Shown here piece by piece: positions 55,062 through 64,000 of a stretch of DNA of 64,000 bases. Made by a program: the position numbers and the translations under genes. Each line of letters starts with the position of its first letter. Position 1 is the stretch's first letter. The stretch is from the NCBI GenBank assembly GCA_963662715.1, contig OY759724.1, positions 1,690,662-1,754,661 on the forward strand. Direction: 5' to 3'. The notes beneath the pieces were generated by a model. It ran no database searches and was not told where the DNA came from. It saw nothing but the letters and a program-made list of their open reading frames with translations. The DNA comes from Candidatus Omnitrophota bacterium. GTDB taxonomy: Bacteria > Omnitrophota > Gorgyraeia > Zapsychrales > JANLHA01.

Positions 55062-55068
55062 TAGAATA
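55062..55068 (+). other. attI-like or remnant attC core site GTTATGA marking left boundary of cassette array
   Basis: Exact reverse complement of the TCATAAC inverse core of attC1 (55406-55412). Confidence 0.4.
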
Positions 55069-55087
55069 ATTGTTATGAGGTAAGAAG

Positions 55088-55399
55088 ATGAAATACAGAA
55101 TAGATTTTACAGGAATACCGTGGGAAGAACCAATTAAAGGCCTAAGGTTCAAAGCTACTGTTCAGGATGGGACAAGGATCCGCCTTGCTGAATTTTCAAA
55201 AGATTTTATAGAGGCAGAGTGGTGCCTGAAAGGGCATACAGGATATCTGCTGGAAGGAAGTGTGGAAATTGATTTTAATGGAGAAAAAATTATTTTTAAT
55301 CAAGGAGATGGTATTTATATCCCTCCTGGAGAACAATCTAAACATAAAACGAAGGTTCTTTCGGACAAAGCTGTCGCAATATTGATAGAAAAAATATAA
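55088..55399 (+). CDS. cassette 1: small cupin-domain protein
   Basis: 103 aa, cupin_2-like beta-barrel motifs (GHTGYLLEG...IYIPPGE); RBS GAGGTAAG. Confidence 0.6.
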   Translation: MKYRIDFTGIPWEEPIKGLRFKATVQDGTRIRLAEFSKDFIEAEWCLKGHTGYLLEGSVEIDFNGEKIIFNQGDGIYIPPGEQSKHKTKVLSDKAVAILIEKI

Positions 55400-55405
55400 A
55401 TAGAC

Positions 55406-55484
55406 TCATAACAAGTCACTTCATCGTCCCCGCCTCGCCACTGTTGCGGCTACGGCAGGGGACGATGAGTTCCTTGCGTTAGCT
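55406..55484 (+). repeat. attC-like site 1 (R'' TCATAAC ... R' GTTAGCT)
   Basis: 79-bp imperfect palindrome AACAAGTCACTtCATCGTCCCC...GGGGACGATGAGTTCCTTGCGTT. Confidence 0.6.
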
Positions 55485-55494
55485 CTCAAAATAG

Positions 55495-55974
55495 ATGAGA
55501 AAATATCAACTTCCAAAATTTTTAGAACGAATGGTTGATCAAAAAGACTATGAAAAATGGTTACGCAGAAAAGCTGTAGCCCATGTTCGCCGCGATAGAA
55601 ACCGAGGATATAAATTAGCTACGAATGAAATATACAAGATTGCTATTCACAAAGCAGTATGTGAATCTGAAGGAAAAGATGCATACACAGAAGAAAGATT
55701 AGATTGGTCATTAATTAGTAAATATGATAACGAACAATCAAAAAAATATGGTAGGAAATACAAAAAACAATTTGCTTTATTGCCTTCTGTTGATCATGTG
55801 GGAGATGGAAAAGGAACAGCAAATTTCAAGATTTGTTCATGGCGTACCAATGATTCCAAGAACGATCTGTCTTACGTTGAGTTTTTAGGATTATGTAAAA
55901 AGGTTATAGCAGCAGCTAACAAGTCACTCCAGCGGGGCCTTTCGGCACCTTCGGCAGCCTCAAGACCCCGCTGA
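55495..55974 (+). CDS. cassette 2: hypothetical protein with degenerate HNH-like motif; ORF terminates inside attC2
   Basis: SVDHVGDGKGTANFKICSWRTNDSKND resembles His-Me finger (DH...N...C..N..K) with one Cys lost. Confidence 0.35.
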   Translation: MRKYQLPKFLERMVDQKDYEKWLRRKAVAHVRRDRNRGYKLATNEIYKIAIHKAVCESEGKDAYTEERLDWSLISKYDNEQSKKYGRKYKKQFALLPSVDHVGDGKGTANFKICSWRTNDSKNDLSYVEFLGLCKKVIAAANKSLQRGLSAPSAASRPR

Positions 55975-55990
55975 GTTCCTTGCGTTCGCC
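55914..55990 (+). repeat. attC-like site 2 (R'' AGCTAAC ... R' GTTCGCC)
   Basis: R'' is reverse complement of attC1 R'; CACTcCAGCGGGG...CCCCGCTGAGTTCCTTGCGTT. Confidence 0.6.
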
Positions 55991-56023
55991 AGTAGAAGAT
56001 CGAAACAACCATAAGGAGGAAAC

Positions 56024-57046
56024 ATGTTCGGTATACGCTTCATCAAGGTTGAACCTACGGAATTCGTACTCCAGTTCAAGCGGGGCAAGGTCGTGCGCGA
56101 GGGGGCGGGCATCTCTTTCTTCTACTTCGCGCCCACGACGTCGCTTGTCCGCATCCCAATCGGCAGCGTGGACGTACCGTTCATCTTCGAGGAAGTCACC
56201 GCCGACTTTCAGGAGGTGACGGTTCAGGGGCAATTGACCTACCGAGTCGCAGAGGCGAAGAAGCTATCCCAGCTCATGAACTTCACGCTGGCGCCGAACG
56301 GGCGGGAGTATGCGTCCGACGATCCTAAGAAACTTCCCCAGCGGCTCATCAATCACGCTCAGGTTCTGACTCGCGCATCTCTGAAATCCCTGCGCCTTAA
56401 GGAGGCGTTGGGCCAATCGGACGCGCTTGTGGCCTCGCTACGCGAGGGACTCCAGTCTGCGGAAGCGATCGCTTCACTCGGCATTGAAATCCTAGGACTC
56501 TCCATCTTGGCCATCAAACCGACGCCCGAGACTTCCCGCGCACTGGAAGCAGAGGCACGTGAGCAGGTTCTTCGTGAGGCCGACGAAGCCGTATATTCGC
56601 GCCGCAACGCTGCGGTCGAGCAGGAACGGGGTATCAAGGAAAACGAACTCAACACCGAGATTGCCGTCGAAAACAAGAAGCGGCAGATCAAGGAAGCCCA
56701 GATGGATGCCGAGAAATCCGTCCAGCAGAAGAAGCGAGAGATCAGAGAAGCGGAGATGGCTGCCAAGATTGCGATAGAGGAGAAGAACAAGGATCTTGTG
56801 GCTCTCTCCACGGCCAATGCCCGCGAGGAAGCAGACGCGAAGGCATACGCCATCGCTGCGGTGATGAAGGCATTATCGGAGACCGATCCGAAGACCCTAC
56901 AGGCTCTCACAAGCGTGGGCATGGAGCCGGGACAACTGGTCGCACTGGCCTTCAAGGAACTTGCGGAAAGCGCTGACAAGATCGGCCAACTGAACGTGTC
57001 GCCGGAGTTGCTCCGCGAACTCCTCCATCGAGATTCTATCAAGTGA
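56024..57046 (+). CDS. cassette 3 gene A: SPFH/band-7 (flotillin/prohibitin-like) domain protein with long C-terminal coiled coil
   Basis: N-terminal SPFH core then Ala/Glu/Lys-rich heptads; strong SD AAGGAGGAAAC; GC-rich relative to neighbours. Confidence 0.75.
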   Translation: MFGIRFIKVEPTEFVLQFKRGKVVREGAGISFFYFAPTTSLVRIPIGSVDVPFIFEEVTADFQEVTVQGQLTYRVAEAKKLSQLMNFTLAPNGREYASDDPKKLPQRLINHAQVLTRASLKSLRLKEALGQSDALVASLREGLQSAEAIASLGIEILGLSILAIKPTPETSRALEAEAREQVLREADEAVYSRRNAAVEQERGIKENELNTEIAVENKKRQIKEAQMDAEKSVQQKKREIREAEMAAKIAIEEKNKDLVALSTANAREEADAKAYAIAAVMKALSETDPKTLQALTSVGMEPGQLVALAFKELAESADKIGQLNVSPELLRELLHRDSIK

Positions 57047-57984
57047 CAGAAAGACGGACAGAGAACAAGATTGTGATTGTCGTCAGGCGAACGCGCCTCG
57101 ACGACCTGATCGCTCGGTTCAACACCGAGGACCAAGCACGGTTCTATGTTGAGCATTTAGGATCAGACTTCTCCGACTATCAGGCAGAACATCGGGTGTA
57201 CAAGCAGGTTGTTCGTGATGCCGAGAACACCCTTTCCCGTCATGGGCGAGTGCAAGTTATCGACCGAGCATTTGTTCCGAATTTTATTTTCGGATCAAAG
57301 GACACAGTCGTTGCCATCGGTCAGGATGGTCTGGTTGCAAATGTTCTCAAGTATCTCGACGGGCAGCTACTCCTTGGTGTCAATCCCGATGTCAAGAGAT
57401 GGGAAGGCGTTCTGTTGCCCTTCACGGTGGCTGACCTGGACTCGGTCATGCCGGAGGTCTTTGCGCGCAAACGACCCGTAGCCGAGGTGACGATGGCGGA
57501 AGTTAGGCTCAACACAGGCGAGACTCTGTGTGCGGTCAATGACCTTTTCATCGGTCCACGCACGCACACTTCAGCGCGTTACTTGATTCGAGTCGGGGAG
57601 AAGATGGAGAACCATTCGTCAAGTGGGATCATCGTGTCGACGGGTCTCGGATCAACCGGCTGGTTGCGAAGCATCATGGCTGGAGCGACAGGAGTTACCT
57701 CTGTTCTGTCGGGCAGACCACTGAAAATCAACGAGAGAAGGGCCGTTGCGTGGGATGCCAACTATCTCTACTTCTCGGTGCGGGAGCCATGGCCGAGCAA
57801 GACTTCTGGAGCGGAGATTACCTTCGGCAAGGTAACCTCCACCACGCCGCTCATTCTTGTCTCACAGATGCCGGAGAACGGCGTTATCTTCAGCGACGGG
57901 ATTGAGACAGATTTCTTGCAGTTCAACTCAGGCACGGAAGCCACTATCACAATGGCCGAAAGGAAAGGGCATCTTGTAACGTGA
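57043..57984 (+). CDS. cassette 3 gene B: NAD-kinase-fold (NadK/DAGK_cat-like) protein
   Basis: GTG start overlapping SPFH stop (GTGA); KIVIVVRR, AIGQDGL (GGDG-like), NDLFIG (NE-like), STGLGSTGW (GSTAYS-like) motifs. Confidence 0.6.
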   Translation: MTERRTENKIVIVVRRTRLDDLIARFNTEDQARFYVEHLGSDFSDYQAEHRVYKQVVRDAENTLSRHGRVQVIDRAFVPNFIFGSKDTVVAIGQDGLVANVLKYLDGQLLLGVNPDVKRWEGVLLPFTVADLDSVMPEVFARKRPVAEVTMAEVRLNTGETLCAVNDLFIGPRTHTSARYLIRVGEKMENHSSSGIIVSTGLGSTGWLRSIMAGATGVTSVLSGRPLKINERRAVAWDANYLYFSVREPWPSKTSGAEITFGKVTSTTPLILVSQMPENGVIFSDGIETDFLQFNSGTEATITMAERKGHLVT

Positions 57985-63273: not shown

Positions 63274-63326
63274 AAAATTGAGTTCATATTTTGAACATTG
63301 TTATTAGGAAGCATGACCCCAATTTT
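63274..63326. repeat. conserved long hairpin in cassette 9
   Basis: AAAATTGAGTTCAT / ATGACCCCAATTTT imperfect inverted repeat directly after micro-ORF stop. Confidence 0.45.
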
Positions 63327-63355
63327 GGGAATGTGTTTGATTCAGCAAACAAAGC

Positions 63356-63433
63356 GTACAACAAATCACTTCAGCGGTCACAGCTCCGGCAGCTTCGCCG
63401 CCTGCGCACGACCGCTGAGTTCTCACGTTGTCT
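63356..63433 (+). repeat. attC-like site 9 (R'' GTACAAC ... R' GTTGTCT)
   Basis: R'' complements attC8 R' GTTGTAC. Confidence 0.6.
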
Positions 63434-63464
63434 GGCTGGAGAGATTGGTGGCGGGAAATTTTAC

Positions 63465-63590
63465 ATGAGAAGCGGAGTGGCGTTTGCGTTTAAGAAATTT
63501 GTTGTTGGTGACGAAATACAAGATGAGGATTCCAGTCAGAAATTCGAAGTGTCGTTGGAGGCGGGTGGCATCACAAAAGAGAAGAGATAA
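63465..63590 (+). CDS. cassette 10 micro-ORF (41 aa), paralogous to 63148..63270; doubtful
   Basis: MRSGVAFAFKKFVVGDEIQDED...; same reading frame as 99-aa track ORF that reads through attC9. Confidence 0.25.
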   Translation: MRSGVAFAFKKFVVGDEIQDEDSSQKFEVSLEAGGITKEKR

Positions 63591-63592
63591 AT

Positions 63593-63645
63593 AAAATTGG
63601 GTTCATGTTTTGAACATTGTTATTAGGACGCATGATCCCAATTTT
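63593..63645. repeat. conserved long hairpin in cassette 10
   Basis: AAAATTGGGTTCATG / CATGATCCCAATTTT; loop ttttgaacattgttattagga conserved with cassette 9. Confidence 0.45.
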
Positions 63646-63674
63646 GAGAATAGATTCGGTTCAGCAAACAGTTC

Positions 63675-63753
63675 AGACAACAAGTCACTACAGCGAGGGC
63701 GCTCGGCCACCGTTGGCAGGCCTCGCACTCCCGCTGAGTTCCTTGCGTTAGAT
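63675..63753 (+). repeat. attC-like site 10 (R'' AGACAAC ... R' GTTAGAT)
   Basis: R'' complements attC9 R' GTTGTCT. Confidence 0.6.
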
Positions 63754-63777
63754 TTAATAAATAACACATGGGAAAAA

Positions 63778-64000
63778 TGAAAAAAATCAATGTTACAGTT
63801 TTACTAGTAGTATTCATGTTTTTAAGTGGCTGTGCGGGGTATATCCCTTATGGAACGGCAACGCTTAAAGCCCATGACAAAATAAATTTTAAAGTGAATA
63901 CGTTTAGTGTTACGCAAGCTAGTGAATTACAAATGTCATATAAAAATCATTTTAATCAAAGGATATTAGATAGATTTAAAAAAGTATTGGAGAAAAAATT
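63778..64000 (+). CDS. cassette 11: putative lipoprotein, 5' fragment (runs off window)
   Basis: MKKINVTVLLVVFMFLSGC lipobox; open to end of window; not in ORF track because no stop. Confidence 0.4.

Follow-up and report, generated by a model that had tools for sequence, protein, structure and literature searches.

A chromosomal integron cassette array with an attI site, probably separated from its integrase gene and carrying two insertion sequences within attC sites

A 64-kb stretch of chromosomal DNA, in the following called the window (positions 1 to 64000), carries at its right end an array of integron gene cassettes with ten attC sites. Very likely, what is seen here is the beginning, on the attI side, of a chromosomal array of integron cassettes that has been parted from its integrase gene (intI). 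The window ends within the array at 64000, and the left neighbourhood consists of 55 kb of chromosome inside the window. In an initial annotation the region had been described as an integron-type array of at least 11 cassettes with no integrase visible. This description was confirmed, with ten attC sites, complementary cassette boundaries at 10/10 junctions, no intI in 64 kb, and ten complete cassettes, behind which an eleventh is truncated at 64000. Loci used for comparison are numbered with L and proteins with P. The complete relatives of the array are L008 (ENA ERZ21869516 contig_14) and L010 (ENA ERZ21869602 ctg94842l, 946-967 kb).

The attC sites and the cassette boundaries

The ten attC sites extend from 55406 to 63753 and lie on a single strand. 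Bit scores refer to a covariance model trained on these ten sites of the window.

55406-55484, + strand: attC1 (62 bits)
55914-55990, + strand: attC2 (74 bits)
57998-58075, + strand: attC3, divergent in sequence; R box of 7 bp, '' arm with three bulges (28 bits)
58610-59939, + strand: attC4, split by an insertion sequence (IS) into 58610-58622 and 59876-59939; folds once reconstituted
60343-60420, + strand: attC5 (70 bits)
60667-60745, + strand: attC6, 1 nt different from L008 2755-2833
61254-61332, + strand: attC7 (54 bits)
61779-63109, + strand: attC8, split by an IS into 61779-61791 and 63045-63109
63356-63433, + strand: attC9, closing cassette 9
63675-63753, + strand: attC10, closing cassette 10

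These ten elements are integron attC sites. Each of them starts with nnnnAAC and ends with GTTnnnn (10/10). The consensus R''=RYYYAAC and R'=GTTRRRY given in the initial annotation was valid for the invariant AAC and GTT alone; in its strict form it is broken at several sites, for example by AGCTAAC and GGCGAAC. Read in reverse complement, the first 7-mer of each attC is identical to the preceding GTTnnnn. This complementarity of successive elements, reported before, was found at 10/10 junctions including the GTTATGA junction at attI, and the same rule is obeyed in L008 and L010. With four free positions at ten junctions and the purine/pyrimidine class given, the probability of such matches by chance is about (1/16)^10. 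A strict pattern of the attC family matched four times in the window, compared with no match in 100 shuffled sequences.

The bottom strands of all ten sites were folded with DNA energy parameters in the form present in the circular cassette. As had been expected from the initial annotation, all ten fold with extrahelical bases on the '' arm, and they share one common fold, in which an R box of 6-8 bp is followed by an unpaired, asymmetric spacer, then by the L box and a long stem that carries a variable tip. The bulged base belongs to the L box, where it lies on the '' arm after three pairs; a single clear bulge is present in most sites, and three in attC3. The consensus fold (n=10) comprises 25 pairs, 12 of them with compensatory changes. 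Conservation of structure but not of sequence is the signature of attC sites according to the feature list of Cury et al. 2016 (PMC4889954). The ten palindromes had been described as elements of 77-79 bp. Eight of them are contiguous, but attC4 and attC8 are each interrupted by an IS of 1,253 bp, and both show the ordinary form of 77-78 nt after removal of the insert.

Applied to the 64 kb, the covariance model detected exactly the ten sites, all on one strand, and the best other match had an E value of 2.5. No attC was detected by the model at positions 1-55 kb of the window, nor in L001 or L002. Elsewhere it matched four sites in L008 (up to 80 bits) and ten in L010 (up to 87 bits), with weaker matches in L003-L007. 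Arrays of this attC family adjoin TIGR02249-positive intI genes in L004, L008 and L010. Rfam gave no match on the whole window at the gathering threshold and none on 54400-64000 at E <= 1; none of its families corresponds to attC or to the seekRNA. The exact pattern of the family had no match in the viral, GTDB-representative genome and JGI metagenome collections, and megablast of the array against plasmids found no match.

The initial annotation had named two explanations that do not involve attC sites, a lineage-specific family of palindromes comparable to repetitive extragenic palindromes (REP) or miniature inverted-repeat transposable elements (MITE), and a simple tandem duplication. Short, GC-rich, imperfect palindromes in intergenic position and the paralogy of three cassettes would be in agreement with such explanations. 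They have next to no probability, though, because ten copies are found in 8.4 kb on one strand and the covariance model detected no copy in the adjacent 55 kb, because the boundary 7-mers are not constant but in every case complementary to the one before, and because the same family of sites lies beside genuine intI in three other loci. Tandem duplication does not explain the R''/R' rule either, since the cassettes, apart from the three paralogues (6, 9 and 10), are unrelated in sequence and G+C.

The attI site and the leader

Upstream of the first cassette the following features were assigned:

54516..55071, + strand: leader (attI-proximal spacer), 556 bp, beginning directly after the stop codon of a TPR/PMT_2 gene
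54586..54626, + strand: leader repeat copy 1, motif of ~45 nt (TATACGnC..GGGGnAAA), direct repeat with 54903-54943
54820..54849, + strand: candidate Pc-like promoter, TTGACA, 18 nt, AATAAT (11/12), top promoter-like site in 54300-64000
54903..54943, + strand: leader repeat copy 2, same ~45-nt motif
55060..55078, + strand: attI core, CGTAGAATAATT-G|TTATGA, crossover between 55072 and 55073

Judged by its homology to complete integrons, the array begins on the left with a genuine attI. In the window, L008 and L010 the core has the same conserved left half, CGTAGAATAAWTG. The right halves differ (TTATGA, TTAAAC, TTATCT), and each of them complements R'' of the attC in the first cassette of its locus. 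Such a combination of a constant left half and a cassette-derived right half is exactly the product of recombination between attI and attC, and for this reason 55060-55078 was assigned as attI. The 7-mer GTTATGA, placed at 55062 in the initial annotation, is located at 55072-55078.

The similarity continues upstream of the core. Positions 54714-55011 of the window aligned with L008 4472-4191 (61% over 303 nt, E 4e-13), and a three-way alignment of the leaders of the window, L008 and L010 gave a mean column identity of 73%. Among the blocks that are invariant in the three leaders are GCCATTGACAA, which is the -35 block of the candidate promoter, the junction CGTAGAATAAWT-G|TT, a GTATAAT/GTATACT element and a repeat motif. 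Neither an ORF (open reading frame) nor a remnant of intI was found in the leader (54516..55071).

Two other origins of the array have to be judged by this junction. According to the initial annotation the region could be the integrase-distal part of a long sedentary chromosomal integron, with intI and attI farther to the left, and the large number of co-oriented cassettes and the rather uniform attC family would be in agreement with this. It is nevertheless very improbable, since the array starts at 55072 with an attI junction whose homologues are found in complete integrons, and upstream of it come the conserved promoter region and a chromosomal gene. Moreover, the 55 kb upstream contain ordinary genes without attC or intI and are syntenic with relatives that lack an array at this place. 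Alternatively, a cluster of attC sites lacking integron-integrase (CALIN; IntegronFinder, Cury et al. 2016, PMC4889954) could have been made de novo by an integrase acting in trans and inserting cassettes at a secondary, non-attI site of the chromosome. An IntI seems to be available in trans, and cassette insertion at secondary sites is documented in the discussion of Cury et al. 2016 (PMC4889954) and in a preprint (bioRxiv 10.1101/2022.09.11.507474). A de novo origin is highly unlikely as well, because the junction and ~300 bp upstream, promoter block included, are homologous to attI and leader of two complete integrons.

The repeats of the window leader lie at 54519-54556, 54586-54626 and 54903-54943 and consist of two copies of the motif and a tandem of GTATTAAGG x4. 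Counted by eye, the motif occurs in about four copies in the spacer of L008 and about four in that of L010, and the 11-mer ATATTATACGA is common to a repeat of the window spacer and the L004 spacer. In this integron clade the spacer between intI and attI is unusually long (~1.2 kb). Its motifs of ~45-50 nt (TATACGnCGTCCC..GGGGCAAAGGGAAC) are found at ~4250-5020 in L008 and ~8880-9620 in L010, and a -10-like element comes after each of them. L004 contains a related perfect palindrome, ATATTATACGAA-n-TTCGTATAATAT.

The integrase and the genomic context

No tyrosine recombinase was found in the 64-kb window by Pfam scans of essentially all sizeable ORFs; the absence noted before for 2.5 kb to the left thus holds for the entire window. 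By tblastn with IntI1 (which served as a probe only), the IntI of L004 and P0150, neither intI nor a fragment of it was detected in the 64 kb (best E = 0.057).

P0150 is a full-length integron integrase of 433 aa with 69% identity to the IntI of L008. It scored 396 bits on TIGR02249 (cutoff 265) and retains the catalytic Arg-Lys-His-Arg-His-Tyr set and the IntI-specific insertion. The neighbouring intI of L004, L008 and L010 reached 412, 408 and 410 bits on the same model. P0001 (TPR) and P0028 (IS transposase), both 100% identical to window proteins, are recorded on one contig of 3,360,633 bp (NCBI and ENA), and P0150 on a contig of identical length and sources. Very probably the source chromosome encodes this intact integrase. 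A search for intI and for a Pc/attI region had been recommended at the initial annotation; it led to attI with a Pc-like candidate at the left end and to P0150, a likely intI elsewhere in the genome that could not be known from the letters of the window. Since P0150 is outside the window, its gene is not located within 54.5 kb upstream of attI.

In L008 and L010 the order in cassette orientation is intI (divergent), a spacer of ~1.2 kb, attI and the cassettes. Their intI (433 aa) is located ~1.2 kb upstream of attI, beside an RND efflux operon, whereas the window has the TPR/PMT_2 gene, which ends at 54515, in the place of intI, and a leader of 556 bp. L001 and L002 show synteny with the window (Mut7-C, UvrD, PD-(D/E)XK, TPR/PMT_2) up to 54491, followed by conserved small genes up to ileS without attC. 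In the genome of L001, the integron L010 is found ~190 kb from the TPR locus, beside the RND efflux operon. Thus, the position of the array beside the TPR gene is specific to the genome studied here.

Some points weigh against an array separated from its integrase gene. The attC model was built from the elements themselves, and the independent evidence is provided by its matches beside genuine intI elsewhere. The promoter of the leader is a conserved consensus match only and is therefore called a candidate Pc. P0150 was placed on the source chromosome by the identical length and sources of the contig, not by gene coordinates. Finally, the view stops at 64000, and an intI just past the right end is compatible with the data.

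The last point leads to the alternative of a single integron in which a segment composed of part of the spacer, attI and the cassettes is inverted; intI would then lie behind the last cassette, beyond the right window end, instead of beside attI. In favour of this, an intI seems to be present in the genome, and the repeat motifs and the IS copies are possible substrates of rearrangement. Furthermore, the spacer of 556 bp with two motifs, compared with ~1.2 kb and ~four motifs by eye in L008 and L010, looks as if broken inside, which suggests a breakpoint within the spacer. Against this stand the two IS copies of the window, which are direct and not inverted to each other, and the distance of ~190 kb between L010 and the TPR locus in the L001 relative, by which the ancestral position may differ. 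An inversion of this kind was considered unlikely. For the separation of the array from its intI, which we prefer, the route may have been a break in the spacer that split the integron, an inversion of the array, or a duplication of the platform with loss of one intI.

In integrons, the tyrosine recombinase IntI cuts the folded bottom strand of attC between A and C of AAC. Recombination between two attC sites would excise a cassette as a circle, and recombination between attI and attC would insert a cassette at 55072. The complementarity of R'(n) and R''(n+1) is explained by a history of IntI-driven cassette insertion. Obvious promoters are lacking in the cassettes, and their genes would therefore be transcribed from the candidate promoter of the leader. 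P0150 could act on the array in trans, in which case the array would still be able to lose cassettes and probably also to gain them. As far as the window shows, the array is formally a CALIN, and this label of the initial annotation was right by the IntegronFinder definition; functionally it is an array with attI that could be served in trans.

The IntI of this clade (P0148, P0149, P0150, L004 2401-3774) have ~430 aa with a conserved N-terminal extension of ~100 aa that is absent from IntI1. Many matches named 'integron integrase' in the JGI collection have the same length. The proteins of the window are otherwise those of ordinary bacterial chromosomal genes (sugar-nucleotide, glycosyltransferase, PriA, Fmt, EF-G-like, GAPDH, an AddAB-like helicase-nuclease pair, TPR). 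The EF-G-like ORF at 23216-26308 encodes 1,030 aa with the GTPase domain from residue 337 on; it has either a large N-terminal extension without Pfam match or an over-called start. The gene at 41640-42665 encodes a peptidase M54 domain (archaemetzincin-type) in otherwise bacterial chromosomal surroundings.

The gene cassettes

The cassettes were delimited by cutting at G|TT.

55073..55478, + strand: cassette 1, 406 bp; cupin-fold protein at 55088-55399 (Pfam Cupin_2; NCBIfam DHCW cupin below cutoff)
55479..55984, + strand: cassette 2, 506 bp; 159-aa protein at 55495-55974, no known family
55985..58069, + strand: cassette 3, 2,085 bp, two genes, ending in attC3
56024-57046, + strand: cassette 3 gene 1, SPFH/Band 7 protein
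57043-57984, + strand: cassette 3 gene 2, 313-aa protein with weak NAD-kinase-like matches
58070..59933, + strand: cassette 4, 611 bp without the IS; HNH endonuclease at 58092-58607 (Pfam HNH_5)
59934..60414, + strand: cassette 5, 481 bp; 125-aa protein at 59971-60348, no family
60415..60739, + strand: cassette 6, 325 bp; no ORF common to its homologues
60740..61326, + strand: cassette 7, 587 bp; 158-aa protein at 60771-61247, no family
61327..63103, + strand: cassette 8, 524 bp without the IS; 147-aa protein at 61341-61784, no known family
63104..63427, + strand: cassette 9, 324 bp; paralogue of cassettes 6 and 10, no conserved ORF
63428..63747, + strand: cassette 10, 320 bp; paralogue of cassettes 6 and 9, no conserved ORF
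63748..64000 (cut by the window end), + strand: cassette 11; ORF from 63768 with a lipoprotein-like N-terminus

A small ORF had been reported in front of each element. This applies to most cassettes, but cassettes 6, 9 and 10 have no shared ORF and cassette 3 has two genes. The ORFs start 15-40 nt past the preceding GTT, so that of the range of 20-40 nt given before only the upper bound was kept. The description of the cassette ORFs as promoterless-looking was supported, with 22 promoter-like sites in the region against 16.9 +/- 4.9 in shuffled sequences, which is no enrichment.

Cassette 3 differs from its neighbours in G+C (0.54-0.58 versus 0.35-0.44). With its divergent attC it looks as if it came from a different cassette pool. 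The ORF of cassette 2 runs ~60 nt into attC2 (55914-55974), and its final 20 codons are attC-encoded. The HNH protein of cassette 4 showed weak matches to the PtuB (Septu) and PDC-M01B HNH models, and no partner gene is present. Searches of the cassette proteins with defence-system models detected no complete system; weak matches of the HNH domain (PtuB-like) were the only ones obtained.

Cassettes 6, 9 and 10 belong to a family of ~322 bp which includes four homologues in L008 and L010 and thus occurs in three genomes. The members outside the window are located at L008 2430-3079 and at L010 2757-3079 and 5814-6136. No ORF is shared by the seven members. A small protein was considered for cassettes 9 and 10, where an ORF of 40/41 aa is found, but it occurs in these two alone and is disrupted by stops or frameshifts in the other five. 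Its amino-acid identity is no higher than predicted from the nucleotide identity, and coding is unsupported. One hairpin only is conserved in the family (AAAATTGGGG, ~30 nt, CCCCAATTTT). A larger RNA fold was rejected, as its covariation term of +0.56 gives no covariation support. The identities of body and attC are discordant, with 76% / 60% for one pair and 62% / 99% for another, which points to an exchange of attC between related bodies or to very unequal constraint.

The insertion sequence and its predicted guide RNA

Two copies of an IS lie in the array:

58623..59875, - strand: IS copy 1, 1,253 bp, inside attC4; transposase 59795..58788, 3' non-coding region 58623-58787
61792..63044, - strand: IS copy 2, 1,253 bp, inside attC8
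58700..58787, - strand: predicted seekRNA/bridge-RNA region of IS copy 1, with conserved stems and covariation of guide and target
58765-58773 (copy 1) and 61934-61942 (copy 2), - strand: guide 1, TAACAACTC, complement of the right target flank
58739-58746 (copy 1) and 61908-61915 (copy 2), - strand: guide 2, TGTAGTGA, equal to the left target flank

The copies are in direct orientation to each other and differ by one base, at the position equivalent to 59808. The transposase (335 aa, DEDD) contains PF01548 and PF02371 and scored 230 bits on NF033542, 'IS110 family RNA-guided transposase' (cutoff 140). Its gene is flanked by 80 nt of non-coding sequence upstream and 165 nt downstream. The ends of the IS are TGATAGT-ATGAAAAC ... 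GTTTTCAT-GGA. Their extensions of 7 nt and 3 nt fit IS1111, while the perfect inverted repeat has only 8 bp. In the plasmid collection nothing reached 40% identity to the transposase. Relatives with 60-82% identity are of metagenomic or uncultured origin, several of them labelled Omnitrophota or Elusimicrobia.

The insertion point is identical in attC4 and attC8 (AACAACTCA^CT). Eight insertions at six loci (window, L003, L004, L008, L009, L010) were compared; all are situated between AACAAnnCA and the L'' arm, and the transposase gene is always opposed to the cassette genes. The two copies of the window are later insertions. They probably disable attC4 and attC8, in which 1.25 kb now lie between R'' and the remainder of the hairpin.

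Four IS lineages were aligned in their 3' non-coding regions. Stems of the predicted RNA are conserved (GGGTG/CACCC with two compensatory pairs, TGGC/GCCG) and close an internal loop, of which guides 1 and 2 form opposite, variable sides. Across the lineages guide 1 contains CTC, GTC or AGC for targets TGAGTTGTTA, TGACTTGTTA or TGCTTTGTTA, and guide 2 contains TAGTGA or GATTGA for targets CTGTAG^TGA or CTGGAT^TGA. A further segment, ATGGATGAT, equals the sequence of the joined ends, CATGGA|TGATAGT, and changes with the right end in L009. In the window the guide-matching TAACAACTCA is present in attC4 and attC8 only, and both are occupied. Together with L008 and L010, five of six matching attC sites carry the IS, compared with none of 18 non-matching sites. 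The match of the guide to TAACAACTCA thus explains that only 2/10 attC sites of the window are occupied. Insertion is probably guided by a seekRNA from the 3' non-coding region of the IS, as the covariation of guides and targets suggests.

The regions L003 5800-7400 and L004 200-1800 contain the same IS (identical transposase P0041) with identical left flanks and different right flanks. The right flank in L004 no longer matches guide 1. This difference suggests a rearrangement, mediated by the IS or by IntI, after the insertion.

The discordance of body and attC in the ~322-bp family, the right flanks of L003 and L004, and the guides that track single-base variants of attC raise the idea that IS copies serve as portable homology by which cassettes are reshuffled and hybrid attC sites made. 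The ~322-bp family might in turn be a functional RNA, a regulatory module or a by-product of cassette genesis. Taken together, these suggestions are speculative and rather doubtful.

Comparison with known systems

Like a CALIN, the array comprises two or more attC sites that share a strand and are spaced by less than 4 kb, and no intI was found nearby, with the left side and the interior covered. Its cassettes are mostly of unknown function, and an IntI is apparently encoded elsewhere on the same replicon. Cury et al. 2016 (PMC4889954) found about half of the CALINs in replicons encoding IntI and listed rearrangement, loss of intI and trans-acting integrases as origins. In contrast to the usual CALIN, the array of the window keeps a recognisable attI and a Pc-like promoter and resembles a whole integron without intI. 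By the reasoning of the same authors (PMC4889954) a split-off CALIN is not driven by Pc; here the candidate promoter went along with the array. For a complete integron intI is expected within ~4 kb of the array, and up to 64000 none was found at this distance in the window.

With L008 and L010 the array shares the attC family, the attI left half CGTAGAATAAWTG, the promoter block, the spacer motif and the cassettes of the ~322-bp family. IS elements of one family also occupy an identical position of attC in these loci. The array is also comparable to the Vibrio superintegron, which is chromosomal, with co-oriented cassettes, fairly homogeneous lineage-specific attC sites, mostly unknown functions and some non-coding cassettes. 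It differs from the superintegron by 11 cassettes visible in the window, the lack of an adjacent intI, at least two attC types and one foreign-looking GC-rich cassette.

Among the IS1111/IS110 elements, ISKpn4, ISPst6 and ISPa25 form the IS1111-attC group (Tetu & Holmes 2008, as cited in PMC11187229). The seekRNA was shown by Siddiquee et al. 2024 (PMC11187229), including these three attC-targeting elements, and the IS1111 family is described there with subterminal inverted repeats of 11-13 bp and extensions of 7 nt on the left and 3 nt on the right. The IS of the window resembles the group in its DEDD transposase, the long non-coding region downstream of the transposase gene, the ends that fit the 7/3-nt extensions, and the insertion close to one end of attC, always at the same position and in the same orientation. 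As in the IS1111 seekRNAs, the predicted non-coding RNA carries a guide complementary to the top strand in front of a match to the bottom strand. It is unlike the group in its perfect inverted repeat of 8 bp instead of 11-13 bp and in its transposase, which is less than 40% identical to the plasmid collection and has its relatives in uncultured bacteria.

The two IS insertions, attI with its Pc-like region and the non-coding cassettes were missing from the initial annotation, as was the likely intI elsewhere in the genome. The attI with its leader, the probable integrase in trans and the RNA-guided insertions of the IS are new for this locus, and each of them is in accord with published frameworks. 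The element as such is of a known kind, because CALINs of such origins, and in replicons encoding IntI, were already listed by Cury et al. Current models are unchanged by these findings. They provide a well-resolved example of an integron from an uncultured lineage, probably Omnitrophota. The closest homologues that carry a name belong to Candidatus Omnitrophota MAGs, and a genome scan with the AddA-like helicase detected no relatives. The attC-targeting relatives of IS1111 type represent a natural data set of base-for-base covariation between guide and attC, which fits an RNA-guided choice of the target. Furthermore, a cassette cluster without integrase can be a whole platform, with attI, promoter and cassettes, that is detached from a surviving chromosomal intI. 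This bears on the questions of how integrase-less clusters arise and whether they are active in trans.

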